Source of the DNA: Cystobasidiomycetes sp. EMM_F5
Taxonomy: Eukaryota
Length of the DNA: 64,000 bases
Assembly (NCBI GenBank): GCA_051047955.1
Contig: JBPGPT010000030.1
Location: forward strand, 62,001-126,000
Direction: 5' to 3'
The notes under the pieces were generated by a model, which worked only from the letters and a program-made list of their open reading frames with translations, was not told the origin of the DNA and searched no databases. The first letter of the stretch is position 1, and each line of letters starts with the position of its first letter. Below are positions 28,006 through 41,521 of this stretch, one piece after another. The translations under genes and the position numbers were made by a program.

Positions 28006-30109
28006 TTAGAGTTCGTCGTGTCTATCCTTTTCGCCAGCTACGGCAGCGGGCGAGGTCGCAGCCTTAGCGGCATCAGGCTTGACTGGGTTGACGGCGTTAG
28101 TCTCGATGAATTCGAGGAAGGACTCGAGGCTTCGGTCGCCCTCGTAGTCGATGAAGGAGCTGCTACCAGCCGCCTTGAACTTGATGGTGGGGAAGCCCTG
28201 CACGCGGAAACCGGCTTCAGGCGGAATATCGTTCTCGTTGGCATCCATCTTGGCAATCATGATTTGGTCCTTGGAGTTGACAAACTTCTCGCCAAGAGTC
28301 TCCCAGATGGGAGCAAGACGCTTGCCTGATACACGTTCCGGTCGTCAGCGACCGCCATACTGGTTTTAAGAATGAAAATTGGGAACTAACAGTGACCGCA
28401 CCAAGAAGCGTAGAGCTCGATAAAGATATCACGCTTGGTCTCTTGAAGCACGACCTCGTTGAAGTTATCTGCGACGACGTTGTAGACGGGCTCATCCTGC
28501 GTCTTCGGGACCGGCTGGCTTTTAACGGAGGGTGCAATTTGACCGCTAACGAACTTGGCAACAAAATCACCGACAGTCTCGGCATTAACAGGTAGGTCCT
28601 GAGACAGTGGGAATTTCTGCTGTTCCTGGACTTTCTGAATAGCGAATGCCGGCCACTTGACCTCCTGAAGATTAAGCGATTTGGCGTGGTCGGCGAACTA
28701 TAACAAGCAGTGGATTAGCTTTCTGAACAACCTTGCATGGTGAATGTAACTCACTTTGTTGGTGTCAATCCAGACAAAGTTGACCTTGCCCTTGTGTTGA
28801 CGAGCGACAGGCTCTAGCGACTTTACAAGAGCTGGTCGCTCAGGGTCATCGGCCGAGACGAAGATGTAGGAGAGCGGGATACCAGCCTCAGCGTACAGCG
28901 CAAAGTTCTCTGGCGAAATTTCGTCGAGGAGGGGCACAGAGTGTTCGGAGACGAAGTCGGCAATGCCCTCGGATGTGAAAGATCCGGAGAAGTCGTTGCG
29001 GCCTTCGTCGAAAGTCTTGTACATGACTAGGGCGGGAGGTACAACACCAGCCTGGCTGATGGCGGTCGGATCGCTGGACAGACCGAACAGGTAGTCATTG
29101 CGGTGGCTCTCGGCATAAGCGTTGAAGATGCCACGATTGACAGAGTCCGATTCCTCAAGGTATCCGATGAGAACAATCTTGTCTGCACCCTGGAATTCGA
29201 CGTGATTTCCCGATTCAACGACAGAGACGGCAGGAAGTGCTTGTCTGTGGGCACCGACGATGAATTTCTGTTCCGCTGCCTAGTATAAGACACCACACTA
29301 AAGAGACCTACTTCTTCATATAGCTGATGATGCCATCCGCTTTGCGGGTACCACCATATTCACTTGGATCACCCTTGCGGAAAACCTTCAGTGTACTGCG
29401 GGCAATGTCCAAGTGTCAGCGAAACCTCCGCTCGGCCAAGCCGCGCTGGCTTTTGACATACGGATATCCTGTAGTAATGACACGTAAAGAGTCAGCCGAG
29501 CCGTCCAGGAAATGCAAATTTCTAAGCGTACCTTGGACACCATATGAGGCACATAGATCGGTCTCCACCGTGCAGTCGACCTTTGCGACTTTTATATCTT
29601 GATCCTTCAATGCGGTCGCTGCTTCTTCCCAATGCGGCGCAAGGGCCTATCGTGCGAAGACAGAGGTACCGTCAGCTGCAATGCGAGTCTCTTGCTATGT
29701 GATTGCTTACTTTGCAATGTCCACACCTTCGTAGGCAAGACAAACGCGTTTTCGACACAAGGTTAGCGGGTTACAAAGCAAATCGACGCGTCCAAGCGAG
29801 CTCGACGTACCAAGCTGAGATGGGTAAGGAGCAGGGAGGGGAAGGAGATTTGTTAGCACAATGTAGCAAATGCTCCAATACGAGCAGTGCCGTCTGCCAA
29901 GACGCCCCGTCCAGACGTGGCCATTGCTCGAGCACGGACGCTGGCTTGAATTGCAAGGCGGACTTACGCGCAAAGAATTCGACGAGCATGAGATCCTCCG
30001 GGGACACGGTAGTGTGAAAGTTGTCCTTGTTGAGATCCAGGACATCTGATGCAGCGGCATACCCTGCGAAGAGGGCAGTGGCCGTCGCGAGAATGGACGA
30101 TGTTCGCAT
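28006..30109 (-). CDS. PDI1: Protein disulfide isomerase
   Basis: Signal peptide MRTSSILATATALFAGYAAA, two WCGHCK sites after splicing, KVDCTVE, GFPTIKF, and C-terminal HDEL. Confidence 0.96.
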
Positions 30110-30441
30110 GATTTTGGCTTGTCTGCAGGTGCAAGTCGAGGCTTGAGTGAGGCTGAGCGCGAGCAGATCAGCTCCGACGCTGCGTTGCTGACCTTTTTGT
30201 AATAAATTGGCAAGTTGTCAAAGGGCGCACAAGTCGCGGAACTTTGCCAATTCAAGTTTGGGTCGCGTTGCCAGAAGCGGTGCCTGGCGTGCCTGACAGC
30301 TGATTGAGCATACTGCCACGTCGACAAGCAGAGAATTTTGCGGAATGAGCAACAGTCAACGAGCGAAGGAAGAGCAGACAAGCACCTCCGCAGATCTAAG
30401 TAGACCCAGAAACAACTTTACTGGCCACTAAACAGGACAAC

Positions 30442-33400
30442 CTAGCGCGACCTCCCGAAGGATACACCCCGAGCCGAGTAATTCTGCACAAAGGCAATCT
30501 CGTTCTGCCATGCCCAGTCAGCGTGTGGACGTAGATGCTCGTAATTATCGCCAGGACTCCAGTGGCTGGAGTCTAGCTTGTTCGTATTACACTGCTCAAC
30601 AAGGCATTGTCAGCTAAAACCCCCTTCTGCATGGATAAGTGACTAACAGCAGCATCGCAAGTGAAGATTAGGATGGTGCCGAAATCAATCGCCTCCTTAT
30701 CTGTGTCGTCTACCCCTATGCGCGCTAGCAGGGTTGACAGGATCTAGAGAGGCAAACTTAGGAATGACAGCACAATAGAAGCATTACTGCAAATCGTGAG
30801 ATTTTGCTTACCTGAAGCTCGCAACTTCGCCGACTGCCACATTTGCAAACGGGAATATTCGATGGCGATACCTTCTGGTCGTCCGAAACCCACAACGGCC
30901 CCGCGCGTCTCGCCACATCGCGGTAATAGTAGCGGAGAAGTTGAGCGGGCTCGTGTCGAAGACGATCTTGAAAGCGCAAAAAAGCGGAGTCGACCCCGCT
31001 GTACGAGTCGGGCTCGTATTTGTCTTCTTCCGATACATTCTCGTTGGCTAAAACTGCAGCCTTGATTCGCGCTTCCGTCTCTACCCGCACCGACACGAGT
31101 CGTCAGTTTCAGATCTGTCGAAGAAGCAAGAAGCAACTGACCGTCTGTGCCCGTCTTGTCATCCTCGTACCATTCTTCCGGGGCCGTCTCGATCAGCCAC
31201 TCTTGCCAGGGTCTACTCGAACAAGGCGGATCGTGCGAAATTTTGCAGTCCTGGCAGAGTCGGCGATCTAGACAAGGAGCGTTATTTATTACGGCGATAG
31301 TATGATATCCACGAGCAGCTTACATTGCGCGTCTTTATATCTTTGTAAATCAGCTTGCTCTTCGGCAGAATCGAGTTCATAGTATGGATTAGACTCGGGC
31401 AGCTGAACGCGGAGGACTTTGACTCTGACGAAAGCGTCAGATCACTGTAGAGAACGTGACTGTCGCATAAACGTACCCGCATGCGAAGCCCATCCGCACA
31501 CACGATCCCTTCCTGCAAGCATACACGTAGAACGCCCGGTATGTCGCCGAGGGGTTATCGTCCAGAGGTGCATTAACTTGAAGCATGAACTGCATTGGTG
31601 TCTGACATGTTTCGCAAATTATCATATCCAGCTCCAAAGGCAGAGCTGGGTTAAGCCATGTCTATTAGGCAGATGCGACGGAGAAATAAGCTTGTGCAGG
31701 TACCTTTCACATAATTTAGCGGCTTACAGGCTTGCCTCCAATCTTGCCAACATCCTTAACCACCTTGAATGACTTTTTAAGTTTGGCAGCGAAGCCCAAT
31801 TCTGTCGTCTCCTCTGGTTCGCTAGCCTCACCACCTTCGTCATCGTCGTCGTCGTCGTTTTCGAAATCGCCAATCTTCATGCGAGAAGTACTGGCTATCG
31901 AGCCCGTCTCTGAAGCCGCACTGCCTCTTCGCTGTCGGCCCGCTGCGCGCCCAGCGACGAGAGCATCCGAGCTCCCGCCTGACAGACGTAGTGGCTCGGT
32001 CGAGTCGGAGATTACAAGATCATCGGTGGCCGCTATCATCTTTACGTCACTTTCGTTGATGGCCTTTGTCTCGACCTCCGTCGTGATCGAGGGTTCAATA
32101 AACCAGTCTTTGGTCAGCTCGGCTGGGAGCTCGTTGCGAAAGTCGACATTATCTCGCTCTACCGCTCGCTGCAACGGTATCGTGATGTTAGTCTCTGAAC
32201 GCAACAGTATAGCTTACGATGACGGCTTACCATCATCAGCTGTACGCCATTGCCGGTCTGAGATCCGATTGACATAGCAGCGTCAAGGGCTGAAGCTAGA
32301 ACATATGACTGCTGTATTGGGCCTCCTCCAGTCAGGTGTAGACCGGTCGTATCGTTCAAGACGGTGTCGAAGGGGACCTGAGTGTTTATCAGTATACAGT
32401 ATACGTGATTATCACGATGCATGATAGGGCTGAACTGCCTACCTCCTCTACCCCAGTATCCGACATCTTCCACCATTTCTTGGCTTCAACGTTTACTCCG
32501 TCCAGATCCACCGCAGAAGAGCCAGACTGTACGTACGAGTAGACTGTTCCCCTACCGAAGAAGCCAGACCACATAATCGAGGTAGACAAGACGTATGGTC
32601 CGTACTTCTGCTCGTGTTTAGGCCACTGCACACGGTTGTTTTGTGTAACAGCTCGCTTGGATTCGTCAATCCCTGTATATATCCTCGCTTAATCACTCAT
32701 TAAGGCTCTTCGCCGAAACGTCGTACACTCACAGGCGATTTCAGTCCCCACAGCCTGTATTGTAGCGGTCAGCTGCTTTACCAACTCAAGCAGTGCAGCC
32801 TGCTTGGATGGGTCCGTCTCCGCATCGGCTGCTCGTTGTAGATGCTTTGTCGCCTGATTCAGAACACCATTACCTTTCTGCTCTGGAGGTACATGGACAT
32901 CTGTCGCAGGGAATGAAGCGGTCTGGGCATCATTCGGACTGATTATAGCGCGCCCTGTCGCTTTGTGTGTCACGAGCTGTTCGCGAGCTGCATCGAGTCC
33001 GCGTGTCTGAGCTTGCGCAGCTTGGCCTTGTTGGCGAAATTGTAAGACTTCCGCACGATTACACCACGCATACCGATCCAAGTATATCTCTGGCCGTATT
33101 TCGTATTGTGGTAACTTTGTTGGATCGCCGTACCCACTCTGACTATTTGGGTGCCGCATGGCCTGCACAAACAACGCATCTCCCGCTTGAAAGACAAACG
33201 CAGGGGCGCCGGCATTGGCAAGCAGTGTATCCAGTGCAGCATATGTGTCGTTTGTCTCTCCGACATGGACGTTGACTTCGGCAGCGTTGAGCCATGTAGA
33301 ATCTGCTGGTTCTACAGTTAAGAGTCCAGCGTTCCCGGTCTCTAGGTATTGACGAGCAATACTGTCGTTCAGTGTACATCCCACAGTGTAGACGATCAAG

Positions 33401-34757
33401 CGTTTCTGATCCACCCAAGCTTCAGCTTCGGCCTGCGTCATCGCCTGCGAATTGACCATATTGACAGCTCTTTCCTCGTGCCATTTCGACCAAGCTTCGC
33501 ATATCTTTTCGTGCAATGCTGTGATTGGCGAGGTCAGATCGACGTGAGGCAGCTTGCCTTGAGGCAAGGCTCAGACAACTCACACTTGATTTCAGTCAGC
33601 GCATGCCTCGGGGGATAGTCCGGTTTACGAATGTCGAAAGCATCCATAATGTCGCCGATACCGATCTTTGCTCGTCTCGTGTGCAACAGAAACACAAACA
33701 GTCTCTGGAGAGCTGCTAGTCGAAGGGTGGCAACGTTGCCTGAACCTGTAGCGAGATCGCGTGTGAAGGCGTCCAGCTCGGGAATCTCACCTGCATACTC
33801 GTTGTACGAGAAACTATCGCGCCATTCGATTTCGAGGGCAAGAACTGCATTGCGAAAGGGTATGTTGTAGAAGAAAGACGCCAACACTGGCCCTATAAAT
33901 GCCAGGTACCCGCTCGGAGGGACAATCATCACTGGGACATCTGCAGATGTTCGCATGCGGGACGCCGAGTGCGAGTCCTCCAGAACTAGTGAGGCAACGG
34001 AGTTGGCACCTTGAGTCTCAAGCTCGGCCATACTGGCGCTCATCGCCGCAGCCATGTCGGCATCTTCCTGCAACTGTCGTGATCTGCTGGGTCCGCGACT
34101 CATGCTGGTTGCAGTGGCAGCATTCTGGATCAGAGGAGTGGGCTGGAAGGGCGGAGCATGATCTTCGAGTGACAAGCGTATTGCTCGCTGGATTTCGTCC
34201 TCTTCGGAGCTAGCGGCAGCGTCGAGCAGGCCTTTCATTCCAGACACATTGTCGCCAGCAGTCAGGTCGATGGGATTATTGGCAGAGTTGACTGCAGCAT
34301 GATCTACCGGAGAACATCGCCCAGCTTTGTTACTGAGGCCATCGATAGACTCATCCATCGCATCTTCTGCTGCCCCTCGAGCTGCTACCTCTCTGAGTGC
34401 GGCTTCTGCATCATGGCCTGCCCACTGCTGCTGGCGTAGAGTCTCCGCTTGAAGTGCTGCTAGACTGCTTACAGCCTCCCATTCCGGATTGGATTTTTGC
34501 CCTTCGTTGGGAGTAGCGAGCTCGGGTGACCACCTTGACGATGTGTTCGCAGCTGCAGGCTTATACGGAACGACGGCTCTTGCCGAGTTGTCGACGGACG
34601 CGACATTAGCAACTCTGTCAGGGTTGTAGTCTGGACAGCCATTCAGTATCCAGTCGACGGCAGTCTCCACTTGCAGCTTGTCGCCAAAATGACGCTGGGC
34701 TTTCAGTACGGCTTCACGGTCGAAGCCAAACTCGTAGAGGGAATTTATGGCCGACAT
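30442..34757 (-). CDS. Fusion ORF: UBA + 2 UIM + inactive USP25/28-like domain, LRLSGG linker, then PDCD2/Tsr4-family domain
   Basis: UBA (LYEFGFDREAVLKAQRHFGDKLQVETAVDWIL); UIMs (EEDEIQRAIRLSLE, EDADMAAAMSASMAE); degenerate USP boxes, IYLDRY, VERDNVDFRNEL. The same frame runs without a stop into ELGFA..KIGGKPTWLNP..CETCQTPMQFMLQVNAPLD..LRFQDRLRHEPAQLLRY..IPVCKCGSRRSCELQ..IDFGTILIFTC. Confidence in each half is higher than confidence that they form one gene. Confidence 0.75.
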
Positions 34758-34927
34758 GGATGCGGCCGCTGAATTCTTGCGCAGCGTCAGCCTTTCCTCA
34801 GTATGCCCAACATGGTTTGCAGATCCAATTGGCTGCCATCCGAAGTGCTCAAACGTCAAATGACGCTGAAAGGGCAACACCTTCAAGTTGACTTTAAACT
34901 GCAAACCCGACGCTGAGCCAGCATGCG

Positions 34928-36511
34928 ATGACTACGACCCGCACGCTGAATGCGCTTCCAACAGTCGTCAATTGGTCGCCGTCGGCTTCAGTCTCAGCAG
35001 CCGCCTTTGTGCTGCCAAGCAAGCAATTCAACGCGGCCGCCCATGTAACGCTCAACATCTGCAACAGCCCAGAGGGCTACAACCAGTCGCAGACGACACT
35101 CGTAACCGCTTCCACGAATGCTTCCATCTACTATCCGTCGTCGGAAACATGGGGCGGCTTTGCGAATCTTTCGGTGCCGGCCGTAAGTGATGGCAGCGAT
35201 TTGACAATCCTGGTCAGTCCCCCATCTGCCAGTACGAGCACTCTGTGGAGTTTTGAACTCGGGGTGTCCCTCCAAGCCACCGCTTGGCATACTCTCGACA
35301 AGTTTGCCCTGTACGCGTACGAGGACAGCGACAATACTTCCGCCTTGTTGACTTCACCGACATATCCATCAGCGTTGCTGTCAAGTCCACCAGCATACCA
35401 AGCTCTGATTGCTCAGACCTCCCAAGTTCGGCTGGGACTCGCTAATTCTACATGCTACATACGCTCTCTATCCAGCCTAATCCCATCCAACCAGATAAAC
35501 ACCTCGACCACAACTAGGGGGGTCGTCGAGCTCACCGAGGCTGAAGGAGGTTACGTCAACGAAACCCTCAGAGGAGGGCAGCGGATGCAATACTCCGTTG
35601 ACGGACTCCAACCTGGAACAAACTACACCGTTTGGGGATTGCAGAATACGCCTAGTATGTCGACGGGGAACAGCACAGCTTCGCGGCTGTTTCTGCCTCA
35701 GTTCTTTGCGACCAAATCTGCCAGCAATTGCAGGCTAGTCTACGACCTTCCCTTCTGCCCTGATGTCGCATACAGCGTGCCAGCTCCGCCAACCATGGAC
35801 ACTTCTCTACTCTTGTCTCTTTACGATAATGCTACTTCGGCCTCTCTTCAGGCGTTCAACCAGACACTCTCGCTATTCTCGTGCGACGAGCCAATACGTT
35901 CGACGCAGGGCATGTATTCGCGCGTCAGAACATGCTCGCAATGCATGGCAGCATATACATCGTGGCTGTGTGCCGTGTCTATGCCTAGGTGTACGGATAG
36001 CGACGCCACCCAAAAGCAAAACGCTAGCCGCAACATCGGCAGTAACCCCACTCAGTTTCTACGAAAGACTGCCAACAATTCTCGAACGCCCTTTCTTCCC
36101 TCGTCTGCATTTCCTTATGCTGAAGTGCCGCCGTGTATCGATGTTTGCAGTATGGTACGCGCTTCATGCCCTCCCATCATCAGTACGCCGTTCAACTGCC
36201 CGCTGGCGGGCATTACTCTAGAAGAAAGCTACGCCACGCCGTTTCGTCAGCAGATTGCATTCTCGAATGTCGCTGGAGGAGATGACACGGCTTGGCTCGG
36301 ACACGACTTGAATCATCACGATTTTGTCACGAGAGCCAGAGATAGATTTGGCAACGTTGCGTGTAATGACCTGGGCACCATCAATCTGGTGACTCGTAGA
36401 CGATGGTCTGGCTCCTCTTCACCTACATCTGGCGCCTTTAGACGATCAGCGTCTAAGATGTCGTTCGTTGCGCTGCTGCTCGCCGGAACAGTCACCGCCG
36501 TCGTTCTTTGA
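34928..36511 (+). CDS. MID1: Stretch-activated Ca2+ channel component Mid1
   Basis: Cys-rich C-terminus CRLVYDLPFCPDVAYSVPAP, YSRVRTCSQCMAAYTSWLCAVSMPRC, PYAEVPPCIDVCSMVRASCP; many N-glycosylation sequons; intronless 527 aa. Confidence 0.88.
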   Translation: MTTTRTLNALPTVVNWSPSASVSAAAFVLPSKQFNAAAHVTLNICNSPEGYNQSQTTLVTASTNASIYYPSSETWGGFANLSVPAVSDGSDLTILVSPPSASTSTLWSFELGVSLQATAWHTLDKFALYAYEDSDNTSALLTSPTYPSALLSSPPAYQALIAQTSQVRLGLANSTCYIRSLSSLIPSNQINTSTTTRGVVELTEAEGGYVNETLRGGQRMQYSVDGLQPGTNYTVWGLQNTPSMSTGNSTASRLFLPQFFATKSASNCRLVYDLPFCPDVAYSVPAPPTMDTSLLLSLYDNATSASLQAFNQTLSLFSCDEPIRSTQGMYSRVRTCSQCMAAYTSWLCAVSMPRCTDSDATQKQNASRNIGSNPTQFLRKTANNSRTPFLPSSAFPYAEVPPCIDVCSMVRASCPPIISTPFNCPLAGITLEESYATPFRQQIAFSNVAGGDDTAWLGHDLNHHDFVTRARDRFGNVACNDLGTINLVTRRRWSGSSSPTSGAFRRSASKMSFVALLLAGTVTAVVL

Positions 36512-37689: not shown

Positions 37690-38912
37690 TTATCGTAGTT
37701 GCCGTAAAACATATCTGGGAATGACAGCACAGTCAGATGCAATGCGAGCGAGTACCAAGTTTTTCTCATACTCTGGCATCCTGAATCCAAAGGAATAGTT
37801 TGGCATATCGACAACTTGCAGAGCCTGCAGATCTCCCACAGCCGAGCATAGCATTATAGCCTCCTCCTTGCTGATGTTGGCCTGCGATGTACCCATGATG
37901 TACTCGACCATGTGCCAGACTGCCATCTGCGACGCCGTCAGGAAATTGTCGTCGATGCCCATGGTCGTGTAGAATCCGTCACGCTCAACCTCGGGAATCG
38001 TCAAGGTAGGCGGACATCTGTACTGAGGCTGACGGACAGGTGCTGACAGCGGCGCAGCTGGAAGCAGAGTTATGCGACTCTTGACCTTGACGCTGGTCTC
38101 GATGGCCGTGCCGCCGACCTCGCCGTCCCCTTGCAAAGCATGGCCGTCTCCTAGCGACAGCAAAGCGCCATCGACTTCGACCGGCAGGATGAGACTGGCG
38201 CCTTGAGTGATGTACTTCGTGTCAATGTTGCCGCCTGTTGAATACGGCGGAACTCGATGCAGTGATTGAGTCGCAGGTCAGGCTTGGTACTTGCTACTGT
38301 GATACTTAGAAGTACTTACTGGACGAATGAGAGCCCGGAAGAGCCCTGGCTACACCGATTTCCCCGCAGAAGGGCCTGGTGGGTATTGTCACGGTCTTTC
38401 CTGCAAGATGCGTTGTTGCGTATCCATCCTGTAAGTGCCACAAGAGCAATCCCTGGCAATCCTTCAGCTCCTTGTTCGCAAGCAGACCGAAGCCTGGGAA
38501 TATGGCAGACCAGCCGTAGTCAGCGGTCTCGATGGAAAGGATATCGATTTGCAGCTGTTGAAAGTCACAGTGAGCCGGACTGGGAAGCGAAGCAAGACGC
38601 CAGCAGAAAGACTCACTGCATCTCCAGGACGCGCATCTTGCACATATATTGGTCCAAACAGCGGGTTCATCGTACTGAGATCGAAAGTCTTGAAGTCGTC
38701 GACTTTCGTCACCGGAGTGATCTGGCCATTGCTCGCATCTAGACAGTCGAGAGTGACCTCGCTGCCACTAACAATTTTTGCTACCGGTTCGAGCGAGTTG
38801 TCCCAGGCAGCATGGGTATGTCTTCGCTGTAAACTGAGAGATTGGCTTTCGGCTCACGCAGACACCTTCTTCGGATGACGAGGGAGCGTACGTGAATTGA
38901 GCAGGAAGACAT
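37690..38912 (-). CDS. Acetamidase/formamidase family protein
   Basis: HAAWDNSLEP, DASNGQI, NPLFGPIYVQDARPGD, PPYSTGGNIDTKY, LSLGDGHALQGDGEVGGTAIET, MLCSAVGDL, VVDMPN. Confidence 0.92.
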
Positions 38913-39139
38913 GGCTGGTTGACGGGGCCCGCAGAGGTGCAGCCTGTGCAGCTCTGTCTGATACACCACACAGCAGACTGAGGAAAGCTACTTACGCGAC
39001 ATCATCCTCCCGGCTTCTCGTCGTCCGAACCGTGATCGAACGTCTAGGGGCAAGGCCGTTGCAACGATACTCGACAGGCCTGTCGGGGTGTCTAGCATGT
39101 AAAGCCCAACAAGAAACTTCTCCTCTTGACATCACAAAC

Positions 39140-41521
39140 ATGCCCAAACTGCGGTCTTCAAGCTGCGTCTGCGCAGCGACTTTGTTGCTCGCACGCGCTG
39201 CCGTGGCGAGCAGCATCCAGGACACTGTTCAGCCAGCGTACAATTTGGTGCCGGGGAGCAGCGACGACCCTCATAATCGTATCGTGCACCCCTTCTCTGA
39301 ACAGGCTCTCCTGCATACTCGTAGCAAGGTCGTCAAAGGTGGAAGCAACACAACCGACAGTCTCGGCCGTTACGGTCATGCAGCAGCATACATTCCCTCT
39401 CAAAACCAGATTCTTTTCATCGGCGGCCAAGTCGGTGTCGCTGGAACGTACATCACGAACGACGTCGTTGTCCTGGATCTCTCGCTTCCCTTGGCGAATG
39501 CAACACAATCAAGCTCGGCGAATCCGGCGCGTCACCCAGACTTCTCTGTTGATTTGCCACCTTCAGCTTGGGGAGCAGCTACCGTAGATTCATATGAGCA
39601 AATATGGCTTGTTGGAGGCGTCACGCAGAATTGCGAGATTGATGCTCCAGGCTATGTCTTCAACTCAACCAACGGCATTTGGAGGCCTGTCGCCGTCGGG
39701 AATAAAAGGCCACCTCGACGAAGGCAGGCCCACGCAGTCTTGCTGCCAGGACGCGGTCAGCAAAGCGTCCAAGACGAAATTTACATTTTCGGAGGCATCG
39801 CTGAGCAGTATACATGCTCATTGGATACTGTCGCGTACCTAGCGATTGACGACTGGCAGCCTCAGCAAGCGAACCCTGCCCTTGTCAACACGACACTTTG
39901 GCATGCCCCTACGTATGGCAGATCTATCCCACCAGCCGTCAGCGACTATGCCGTCTTTAAATTACCACAGTGCCACGACGGTGTCGTGTACATTGGCGGT
40001 CAAGATGCATCGGGAAAATTACTCGGAATGGACACAGCTCTACTATACAATACGACTACAAAGCTATGGGCTCAAGTCGTGAGCGCACGATGAATATCTT
40101 TCCCATGATTCTCTGACTGACAGGTGCTTGGCTACATCTAGCACATTGGAGGGGAGACACCTCTGCCAAGGATGGGTCATTCTGCAGTATCGCTAGGAGA
40201 CGGCCGCATCCTTGTTCATGGCGGCGTTGGGGCAAGGAACCAGGTTGTTCCTGCTTCGTATATTTTGAATCCTCAGGACGGCAATTGGACCTGGACAGCT
40301 GTTGAGCTAGCTGATGGCAGTCTAAATCCACCGTATCGAGCGTGGCACAGCGCGACAACCGTAAAAGACAACGTTGTCGTCATTGCCTTTGGCATGGACG
40401 CTATCACCGGAAAGACTACAGACGAGATTGCATTTTTGTCAGGCCACGACAGTACCGGATGGACATGGTCACACAAAAATCCTCTGTACGTTCCGCCTGC
40501 TCAAACAACAACCAGCACATCTCCATTCTCGTATTCTCTTTGGTCGCCTCCGGCAACGTCAACTTCCTCTGCTGCAGTAGGTCCCATCATTAACGCACCC
40601 AGCGAACCTATCTCGTACGGAGCTGTGGCTGCTCCCAATCAACCTTCCACAACGTCGGATGATCAGCTCACCCCGACCGTAAGCAGCATATTCTCTTCCA
40701 GTAATCTCGGCTCTTCCGATGCACAGCAGCAGGCATCCTCTTCGAGGATTGTCGGCGGAACCGTCGGCGGCATATTCGCAGCCGCAGCAGCAGCTGGTTT
40801 GATTAGCTGGTATCTGCGTCGTAAGCGGAGCTCGGACGCCCTGGTGCTTGCTAGTAGCGAGGACGAGAAAGACGCTCCACCCGTTACGAAGCTACTATAT
40901 ACACGCAAAGTACCGCAGCGTGTATTAAGTCTGGGCAGTGATGCTTCTGTCAGAACTGCAGCAGCTTTTGTTGCACACGGTGCCTACGGATCGATGGACT
41001 CGGCAAACGGATCCAGCTCGTTCAGAGTGATTAGACCGAAATCATCAATAGATGAATTTGGCAAGATACCTGGCGATGTGCCTGCACCTCAAGCTGTGCA
41101 TATTCCTTCTAGCGGGTCGGATGCTAGCGAACATTCCGGCCGCGATTCTGTGGCATCTTATCCGTTCCTTGGCAGCGTTCCCATTCGCTCCAACGGACAC
41201 GAGCGTATTTCTTCAATTTCGGCGACGGGCTCTGTCAGTGAGCTTGGCCGGACTCTGCTCCGCAGTCAGTCGATGCGGTCGTCGGAAAGCTCTAGTTCAA
41301 ATAACAGCTTACTTGGCAATGAGGCAAGGCTGTCACCTGGCAGATTGCGGGTAGCAAACGGAGCAGCCTCTACGCCTCTACCCTCAGGCGAGTTCAGCAG
41401 GCCCACTTCGCTAGCAGTGCAAGACCCGTTCCTCGATTTCGACGAGATGACGGTTGCCAACAACCTAGCTTCTCGAGCGCCAGCGCCCCCTAGCCAAGCG
41501 CGAGGTGTGCGCTTTGGTTAG
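39140..41521 (+). CDS. Kelch-repeat type I membrane protein
   Basis: Signal-like N-terminus; kelch repeats (RYGHAAAY..ILFIGG, IWLVGG, IYIFGG, VYIGG, GHSAVSLGDGRILVHGG, RAWHSAT); S/T stalk; TM segment IVGGTVGGIFAAAAAAGLISWYL followed by RRKR. Confidence 0.8.

Follow-up and report, generated by a model that had tools for sequence, protein, structure and literature searches.

Organization of the locus and its reading frame

The window, i.e., the whole stretch of 64,000 nucleotides (nt) analyzed here from Cystobasidiomycetes sp. EMM_F5 (contig JBPGPT010000030.1, positions 62,001 to 126,000), carries a gene in which a USP25/28-like protein is joined to PDCD2/Tsr4 through a linker containing a copy of the ubiquitin tail. 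Coordinates are positions in the window, and those of the fused gene and its parts refer to the minus strand. The whole fused gene occupied 30442..34757, with a start ATG at 34757-34755 and a stop codon at 30444-30442, and was modeled as 11 exons and 10 introns with 1,234 codons plus the stop, giving a spliced product of 1,234 amino acids (aa). The ten introns were all of the GT..AG type and 52-68 nt in length, each with a branch-like CTAAC, CTGAC or similar sequence. The two halves meet in the junction exon (31728..32168), in which the USP25/28-type DN helix, the linker and the PDCD2 N-terminus share a single frame, as judged by the open reading frame (ORF), alignment A1 (seven sequences) and codon usage. 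A stop-to-stop ORF of 165 aa (31716..32213) was found to hold RAVERDNVDFRNEL, the linker with LRLSGG and the PDCD2 stretch ELGFA..KIGGKP, all in one frame; since this ORF alone spans both halves, the fusion call is independent of any intron call. The original prediction, made from the letters of the window, that a USP-like gene on the minus strand runs without a stop into PDCD2 was thus borne out, and the open junction is conserved in relatives. The 62-nt intron that it had placed upstream of the junction was likewise recovered as intron 4 (32169..32230; phase 0, GTAAGC..CTAAC..CAG) and is backed by homology, since exon 4 (32377-32231) and exon 5 aligned to residues 253-281 and 364-451, respectively, of the same uninterrupted ORF, P0008. 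Intron 4 also contains an alternative GTAAGC donor (32217), and a TAG at 32159 could act as an alternative acceptor; as read from the sequence, use of either site would cut the pseudo-USP short of PDCD2, and so would intron retention, which brings in a stop at 32159.

The linker was examined for signs of coding function. Across 32168-31881 (288 nt, 96 codons) there were 0 in-frame stops, compared with 7 and 4 in the other two frames, and its codon-usage score was +0.217 bits per codon in frame versus -0.505 and -0.354 off-frame, comparable to exons 1 and 2 (+0.219 and +0.194 bits per codon). An open frame of this length was obtained in 457 of 20,000 mononucleotide shuffles; openness by itself is, however, weak evidence in this DNA, because an off-frame ORF of 236 codons without a Pfam match is present at 29707..30417. 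An antisense ORF of 185 codons was also noted opposite the linker (31720-32277, plus strand); codon bias on the acidic, Ser-rich sense strand probably explains it.

Domains of the fused protein

The upstream half begins with a UBA-like domain (residues 3-45; 34623..34751) that matched Pfam UBA_7 at an E-value of 6.5e-06 and 26.4 bits (cut-off 27) and UBA at an E-value of 0.0057; orthologues of the fused protein also match UBA or UBA_7. A ubiquitin-interacting motif (UIM) was detected at 34155..34205 (Pfam UIM, E-value 5.8e-06, 26.2 bits, cut-off 21). No match to UCH (PF00443) was found in the window when each exon was scanned separately against Pfam. Fused orthologues passed the UCH cut-off of 23.9 bits (27.8 for P0078, 34.8 for P0026 and 25.3 for P0021), and the window sequence aligned with these orthologues in alignments A1 and A3. 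Furthermore, a profile of 13 orthologues (A2) matched human USP25 (chain 5o71_A) at an E-value of 1.6e-37 and USP28 chains at about 1e-31, with the match spanning the UIM region, the catalytic domain, the helical insertion and the DN helix (USP25 residues 62-461 and 556-709). The helical insertion typical of USP25/28 is kept, as the A2 profile matched USP25 residues 400-553 and AlphaFold2 placed helices at residues 509-626 of P0078. The DN helix that follows the catalytic domain (RAVERDNVDFRNEL; 32127..32168) is homologous to the DLRDFVEEDNQRFEKEL stretch of USP25, and the A, D and N of its RAVERDN segment (A..DN) were invariant in A1. The C-terminal helical domain of USP25/28 is absent from the window and from all fusions, which carry the linker and PDCD2 instead. 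P0078 alone, compared with PDB sequences by phmmer, had the UBA region of USP5 as its sole match, and a search for homologues of exon 2 among longer proteins only gave 5,393 candidates, with none at an E-value of 0.001 or below.

Comparison of the catalytic boxes revealed that both are degenerate. At the Cys box (33840..33920), the columns of A3 place an Ala (33902-33900) at the position of the catalytic Cys; TCWFSAVIQ of USP25 (5o71) corresponds to lslLsayLq in the A2 consensus, with the catalytic Cys opposite an s, and the residue in this column is Ala in the window, Ser in P0078 and Gly in P0028. At the His box (32527..32601), the window reads GTVYSY with a Thr (32547-32545) in place of the catalytic His, a residue placed by eye through alignment A1. 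The GHYWAY of USP25 corresponds to gslwsv in the A2 consensus, and the His is opposite Ser or Thr across relatives; only P0111 (Mucoromycota) and P0093 (Glomeromycota) retain GHYWAY. Because Cys and His are replaced by Ala and Thr, the upstream half is, on the evidence of its alignments, a pseudo-USP25/28 predicted to be catalytically dead. The pseudo-deubiquitinase of the original prediction is thereby placed specifically in the USP25/28 group. P0093 and P0111 keep GHYWAY, yet no Cys of theirs aligns with the USP25 catalytic Cys in A3, and it is possible that the fungal USP25/28-like family as a whole is inactive or atypical. Within the USP domain, exon 4 (32335-32352) contains LHLTGG, another string resembling the tail; it aligned to MHMYNGGG in relatives, is not GG in Pucciniomycotina, and is probably part of a USP strand rather than a site.

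The downstream half is assigned by homology to PDCD2/Tsr4, as had been predicted. Its N-terminal strand and loop (ELGF..KIGGKP; 31728..31802) were invariant in A1 and are followed by an intron and then TWLNP, such that the LG[FY]..GGxPxWL motif is present in the window; stand-alone PDCD2 proteins P0158 and P0172 have the same LG..GGxPxWL motif 3-5 residues past their start. The PDCD2_C domain (PF04194; 30648..31078) is split by an intron (30744-30811) and was detected in both exons, at 48 bits and an E-value of 1.4e-12 in exon 30812-31078 (cut-off 30) and at 22.1 bits in exon 30648-30743. A MYND finger was not found in the PDCD2 of the window; one is present in the Mixia orthologue. The yeast and human PDCD2/Tsr4 proteins are described as dedicated chaperones of uS5 (Rps2) (PMC7736825, PMC6648895).

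Distribution of the fusion in fungi

A search with the junction exon returned six environmental ORFs (43-51% identity) in which the USP domain runs into PDCD2 without a stop, and a profile search of 1.84 billion proteins gave 125 matches. Of 15 long matches retrieved, 14 were fusions, with lengths of 891-1324 aa; the fifteenth, P0093, carries another domain at its C-terminus. Single NCBI gene models extend across both halves in 13 named species of Pucciniomycotina, namely Phakopsora pachyrhizi, Puccinia triticina, Puccinia striiformis, Cronartium quercuum, Microbotryum intermedium, Mixia osmundae, Pseudohyphozyma bogoriensis, Meredithblackwellia eburnea, Rhodosporidiobolus ruineniae, three Sporobolomyces species and one Microbotryomycetes isolate. 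Environmental relatives from the clade of the window have no intron at the position of intron 4 and read straight through. Contigs in the P0018 cluster measure 2.5-3.7 kb, are taken up by ORFs reaching 1191 aa with a common C-terminus, and look like spliced full-length messages. A scan with alignment A1 identified one locus, L001, a genomic one that starts within the linker, also carries the intron after GGKP and is uninformative about the frame upstream. No relative of P0137 was found in metagenome contigs, and a protein atlas search with P0008 gave no usable match. Judged by these comparisons, the locus is one conserved gene.

Unfused relatives were found as well. Those of Agaricomycotina (Trametes, Sphaerobolus, Pluteus, Tulasnella, Plicaturopsis and Favolaschia) are 600-860 aa in length and end shortly past the DN helix without PDCD2, and those of Mucoromycota and Glomeromycota (P0111 and P0093) are longer, retain GHYWAY and have a helical C-terminal part. 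The public models of the fusion carry generic names, i.e., 'programmed cell death protein 2', 'UBA domain-containing' or hypothetical. No published description of a PDCD2-USP fusion or of its junction was found in the literature covered, the uS5 review PMC10216425 included. Fused gene models are already public but unremarked, and the proposed processing would resemble that known for fusion precursors with a ubiquitin tail, but with no ubiquitin fold and set between a pseudo-enzyme and a chaperone.

The linker and its conserved ubiquitin-tail motif

Ubiquitin fusions carry the tail L-R-L-R-G-G, and the linker of the window has LRLSGG (31974..31991), identified by the invariant positions of MAFFT alignments together with a pattern; its context is PLRLSGG-S, and the proposed cut would fall after G844 (31974). 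No ubiquitin (beta-grasp) fold was found directly before the GG, as the original prediction had stated: in the window 45 residues separate the DN helix from the tail motif, and in the AlphaFold2 model of orthologue P0078 the linker (residues 757-855) lies entirely below a confidence (pLDDT) of 50 and has no secondary structure. Other elements of the linker were also mapped. A basic, Ser-rich block (RQRRGS..ETGSIASTSR; 31881..31937) lies past the motif in the clade of the window only, with R80, R81, S83, S86, G89, S90, I91, A92, S93, T94 and S95 invariant in the seven sequences of A1; this RR.S..S..GS[IV]ASTS block directly follows the GG and is missing from Pucciniomycotina fusions. It resembles a basophilic-kinase site with a Ser/Thr cluster and would sit near the new PDCD2 N-terminus if the GG cut occurs. 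An acidic run precedes the PDCD2 N-terminus (31809..31862), and an acidic spacer is found here in all fusions. The window also has (i) a recurrent in-frame Met 22 residues before the GG (32037..32039), a possible internal start; and (ii) the Met of MKIGDF at 31880-31878.

To describe the junction across relatives, proteins with at least 40 residues ahead of the PDCD2 N-terminus were collected, which gave 64 database proteins plus the window (65 junctions); P0030, with 22 residues upstream only, was left out. When no pattern was imposed, MAFFT alignment of the linkers left L60, L62, G64 and G65 invariant in A1 and L827, G829 and G830 invariant in the 13 sequences of A2, with A831 at 90% or above. 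The pattern [LVIM]xGG was present within 70 residues upstream of PDCD2 in 65 of 65 junctions. Random 70-mers of linker composition contained it in 1,789 of 20,000 draws, so a single occurrence is expected by chance at that rate and the motif is meaningful only because it is conserved. The 50 non-redundant junctions (<80% identity over P14 to P12') were then used to derive residue frequencies. P4 was L in 49 of 50, and P2 and P1 were G in 50 of 50; P7 was P or A in 32, P6 was L in 35 and M in 14, P5 was R in 33, and P3 was R in 32, S in 8 and K in 7. Past the motif, P1' was A in 36, S in 7, G in 3 and T in 1. The positions flanking the motif each held less than 1 bit of information, the distance from the GG to the ELG strand varied from 18 to 56 residues (median 34), and exact LRLRGG was present in 12 of the 50. 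The junction consensus is [PA]-[LM]-R-L-R-G-G followed by Ala or Ser. Persistence of an L-x-L-x-G-G motif in an otherwise unconserved linker had been proposed as a check on the original prediction, and the junctions pass it; in these alignments the tail copy is the only element of the linker that is conserved across deep fungal divergence. A short-linker lineage (P0128 and P0157) was observed to have RLELRGG and PLELRGG about 8 residues past the last USP strand, with no DN helix and no Met upstream of the tail motif.

The motif was then sought in relatives without a junction. No tail motif was found in 69 related proteins of at least 450 aa lacking a junction; those with names belong to Agaricomycotina, Mucoromycota and Glomeromycota. 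In their last 200 residues the pattern was matched only in P0032 and P0086 (LHLNGG and LHLGGG), and these matches look like the LHL..G strand inside the USP domain. Since unfused relatives with the same dead domain lack the tail motif, the motif is tied to the junction and not to the pseudo-USP domain.

Proposed processing at the tail motif and alternative explanations

A deubiquitinase cleft demands of the ubiquitin tail a strict P4, P2 and P1 with a loose P5 and P3, the pattern seen at these junctions. The motif is tied to the junction, P1' is nearly always small, 35 of the 50 junctions have no Met downstream of the GG, and the linker is predicted to be disordered; on these grounds the motif is suggested to be a processing site that frees PDCD2. 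Cleavage after the GG by a deubiquitinase is the best reading of the sequences, and we give it about even odds (a probability of about 0.5). The encoded protein is laid out as a UBA domain and UIM, a dead USP25/28-type domain, a disordered linker and the uS5 (Rps2) chaperone PDCD2/Tsr4; in this proposal the bare tail would enter the S4-S1 cleft of an active cellular deubiquitinase, and the chain would be cut after the GG. This would yield two products one-to-one, as happens with ubiquitin and ribosomal proteins made from their natural fusions: a pseudo-enzyme of 844 aa that binds ubiquitin and has ..LRLSGG as its C-terminus, and a PDCD2 of 390 aa whose first residue is small. We infer the single transcript in the source organism, the cut and the protease that would make it. 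That the neighboring USP domain cuts its own chain was considered and rejected, as it has neither the catalytic Cys nor the catalytic His. A ubiquitin tail can be cleaved even when no fold precedes it, since the fission-yeast deubiquitinase Mug105 is reported to cleave bare RLRGG-AMC independently of the ubiquitin Ile44 patch (PMC8776766).

Several observations weigh against cleavage by a deubiquitinase. The [LVIM]xGG pattern presupposes part of the motif that it counts, and the junction sequences are related by descent, so their counts are not independent. Most deubiquitinases need a folded ubiquitin body for efficient cleavage, and none is present here; furthermore, the Ser at P3 in the window and in rusts removes one of the two arginines read by Mug105-type enzymes, and P1' is L, M or R, one each, in 3 of 50 junctions. 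The protein may instead remain uncut, with the tail mimic held as a pseudo-substrate ligand in the dead USP cleft of its own chain or of a USP25/28-type dimer partner, where the bound tail would latch or gate the PDCD2 module or the ubiquitin-binding surface. This is possible, though we regard it as doubtful. A USP fold without catalytic Cys and His adjoins the motif and could hold a tail without cutting it, a strict L-x-G-G would suit any USP-type cleft equally well, and the helical insertion, which in USP25/28 is described as serving dimerization and auto-inhibition (PMC6509359), is retained in the A2 profile and the P0078 model. Retention of the tail in the dead cleft, however, sits poorly with the unfused Agaricomycotina, which share the dead domain yet lack the motif; a near-constant small P1' is easier to explain as a new N-terminus; and the roughly 8 residues between the last USP strand and the motif in P0128 and P0157 would leave little slack to fold back. 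AlphaFold2 confidence did not rise at the motif either (average pLDDT of 27 and 33 for P0078 residues 821-830 and 831-840), an argument that is weak because the alignment had only 13 sequences. Prediction of a complex between the P0078 pseudo-USP (205-745) and its linker (800-857) scored 0.00 in two runs that left the alignment unused and were made without controls, and gives no weight to either side.

Separate translation of PDCD2 is another challenge to cleavage at the tail. A Met is present at -45..-13 from the cut site in 40 of 45 non-redundant junctions, compared with 19 of 39 in the control stretch -78..-46; it often stands in the context [DE]-[VT]-x-M-[SAQ]-x-[DE], was not anticipated in the original prediction, and may represent an internal start codon or belong to a short acidic-hydrophobic motif. 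In addition, P0144 begins at this recurrent Met, the Rhodotorula graminis gene model P0145 has its PDCD2 begin at a Met that is P6 of the motif, and P0030, a 59-aa ORF from a near relative, has the equivalent of Met 31880 as its first residue; because of these internal starts, separate translation of PDCD2 is possible, including from a start that would keep the tail motif. Met 31880 was rejected as a general PDCD2 start, given the 35 junctions without a Met between the GG and the PDCD2 N-terminus. These starts would fit a model of two messages, in which PDCD2 is made from an internal transcript beginning in the linker (Met 32039-32037 or 31880), alternative splicing of intron 4 ends the pseudo-USP, and tight packing or a nested promoter has produced the shared frame as a by-product. 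Intron 4 offers the means in the window, since its retention gives the stop at 32159, and donor 32217 and acceptor 32159 would shift the frame. We nonetheless consider two messages unlikely. The frame is continuous in all 64 database junctions despite very different linker lengths and sequences, which is not how a by-product behaves; the relatives without intron 4 still read through, codon usage in the linker is exon-like in the fused frame, one gene model covers both halves in the 13 named species, and the P0018-cluster contigs resemble full-length spliced messages. Moreover, a start at the recurrent Met would leave the tail before PDCD2 and so leave retention of the motif unexplained. That the motif is a functionless relic of a former ubiquitin unit between two genes, or a chance match, is very improbable: some junctions recall more of the last strand of ubiquitin (e.g., TLHLRGG in P0005) and random 70-mers do yield the short pattern at the rate given above, but 49-50 of 50 junctions, drawn from two deep clades, agree at P4, P2 and P1 amid surroundings of less than 1 bit, where a relic would drift. 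An assembly or sequencing error that deleted a stop in the window can hardly be entertained, as the same open junction is present in 64 independent database sequences.

Implications and neighboring genes

If the deubiquitinase cut occurs, the fused protein would be a cellular precursor processed at a ubiquitin tail with no ubiquitin ahead of it, i.e., a natural minimal deubiquitinase substrate, and such a tail-only substrate would be conserved across rusts, red yeasts and the clade of the window. Whether cut or uncut, the fusion serves as a Rosetta-stone link that predicts the basidiomycete pseudo-USP25/28, unfused in Agaricomycotina, to work with PDCD2/Tsr4 and its client uS5. A ubiquitin-binding partner is plausible for PDCD2/Tsr4 because uS5, together with uS3, is reported to be ubiquitylated by RNF10 in 40S quality control (PMC12008924). 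A further suggestion, which we offer as a long shot, is that the free ..LRLxGG end of the pseudo-USP25/28 would be read like unanchored ubiquitin and that the bare tail is a portable cleavage module in a cellular polyprotein; candidate readers would be zinc-finger UBP readers, the protein's own dead cleft, or even activation and conjugation. Were this so, the adaptor itself would be tail-tagged, linking uS5 delivery and 40S assembly to ubiquitin signaling.

The genes around the locus were also recorded. A homologue of Mid1, a stretch-activated calcium channel component (Pfam E-value 9.3e-68), lies divergent from the fused gene at 34898-36511 on the plus strand, and, should translation begin at its first ATG (34928), the start codons of the two genes would be only about 170 bp apart. 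On the other side, a protein-disulfide-isomerase-like gene (Thioredoxin_6; 28220-30217, minus strand) begins with what looks like a signal peptide, about 330 nt past the PDCD2 stop. The neighborhood also holds a formamidase/acetamidase fragment (37693-38277, minus strand) and two ORFs with Kelch repeats (38879-41518, plus strand).

Comparison with known systems

An LxGG or GG site that parts the functional proteins of one precursor is a feature shared with the coronavirus papain-like protease system and with Sde2. The coronavirus enzyme, which is viral, cuts its own polyprotein at LXGG; Sde2 is reportedly processed at a GG and is said to have a ubiquitin-like fold ahead of it, unlike the window. 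With regard to the individual halves, the N-terminal half of the fused protein has the same layout as human USP25/USP28, namely a UBA-like domain, a UIM, a USP domain with a long helical insertion and the DN helix, but differs in that the catalytic Cys and His are replaced and the C-terminal helical domain is swapped for the linker and PDCD2. Similarly, canonical PDCD2/Tsr4 starts 3-5 residues before the LG motif, whereas in the window a whole pseudo-USP, the tail mimic and an acidic spacer come ahead of it.

Among deubiquitinases, USP1 is described as cleaving itself after an internal G670/G671 (PMC4326527) and is alike in having a diglycine outside any ubiquitin fold and within a USP-family protein, where the cut is made by a USP active site. 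USP1 is, however, active and self-cutting, whereas the USP of the window is without Cys and His, so its cut would need another enzyme. The ZUFSP family (human ZUP1 and Mug105) provides cellular enzymes, one of them fungal, that accept the fold-less RLRGG-AMC tail; this family reads both arginines, the window has Ser in place of one of them, and PMC8776766 reports no natural tail-only protein substrate. A further parallel is found in Ub-eL40, Ub-eS31 and FUBI-eS30, in which an ..RGG tail directly precedes a protein of the ribosome-assembly pathway and the parts are made one-to-one; the nearest analogy in function is FUBI-eS30, whose processing by USP36 is reported to be required for 40S maturation (PMC8354635, PMC10611586). 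Those fusions join a complete ubiquitin fold to a ribosomal protein, whereas here, with no such fold, a pseudo-enzyme of about 800 residues is joined to a chaperone.

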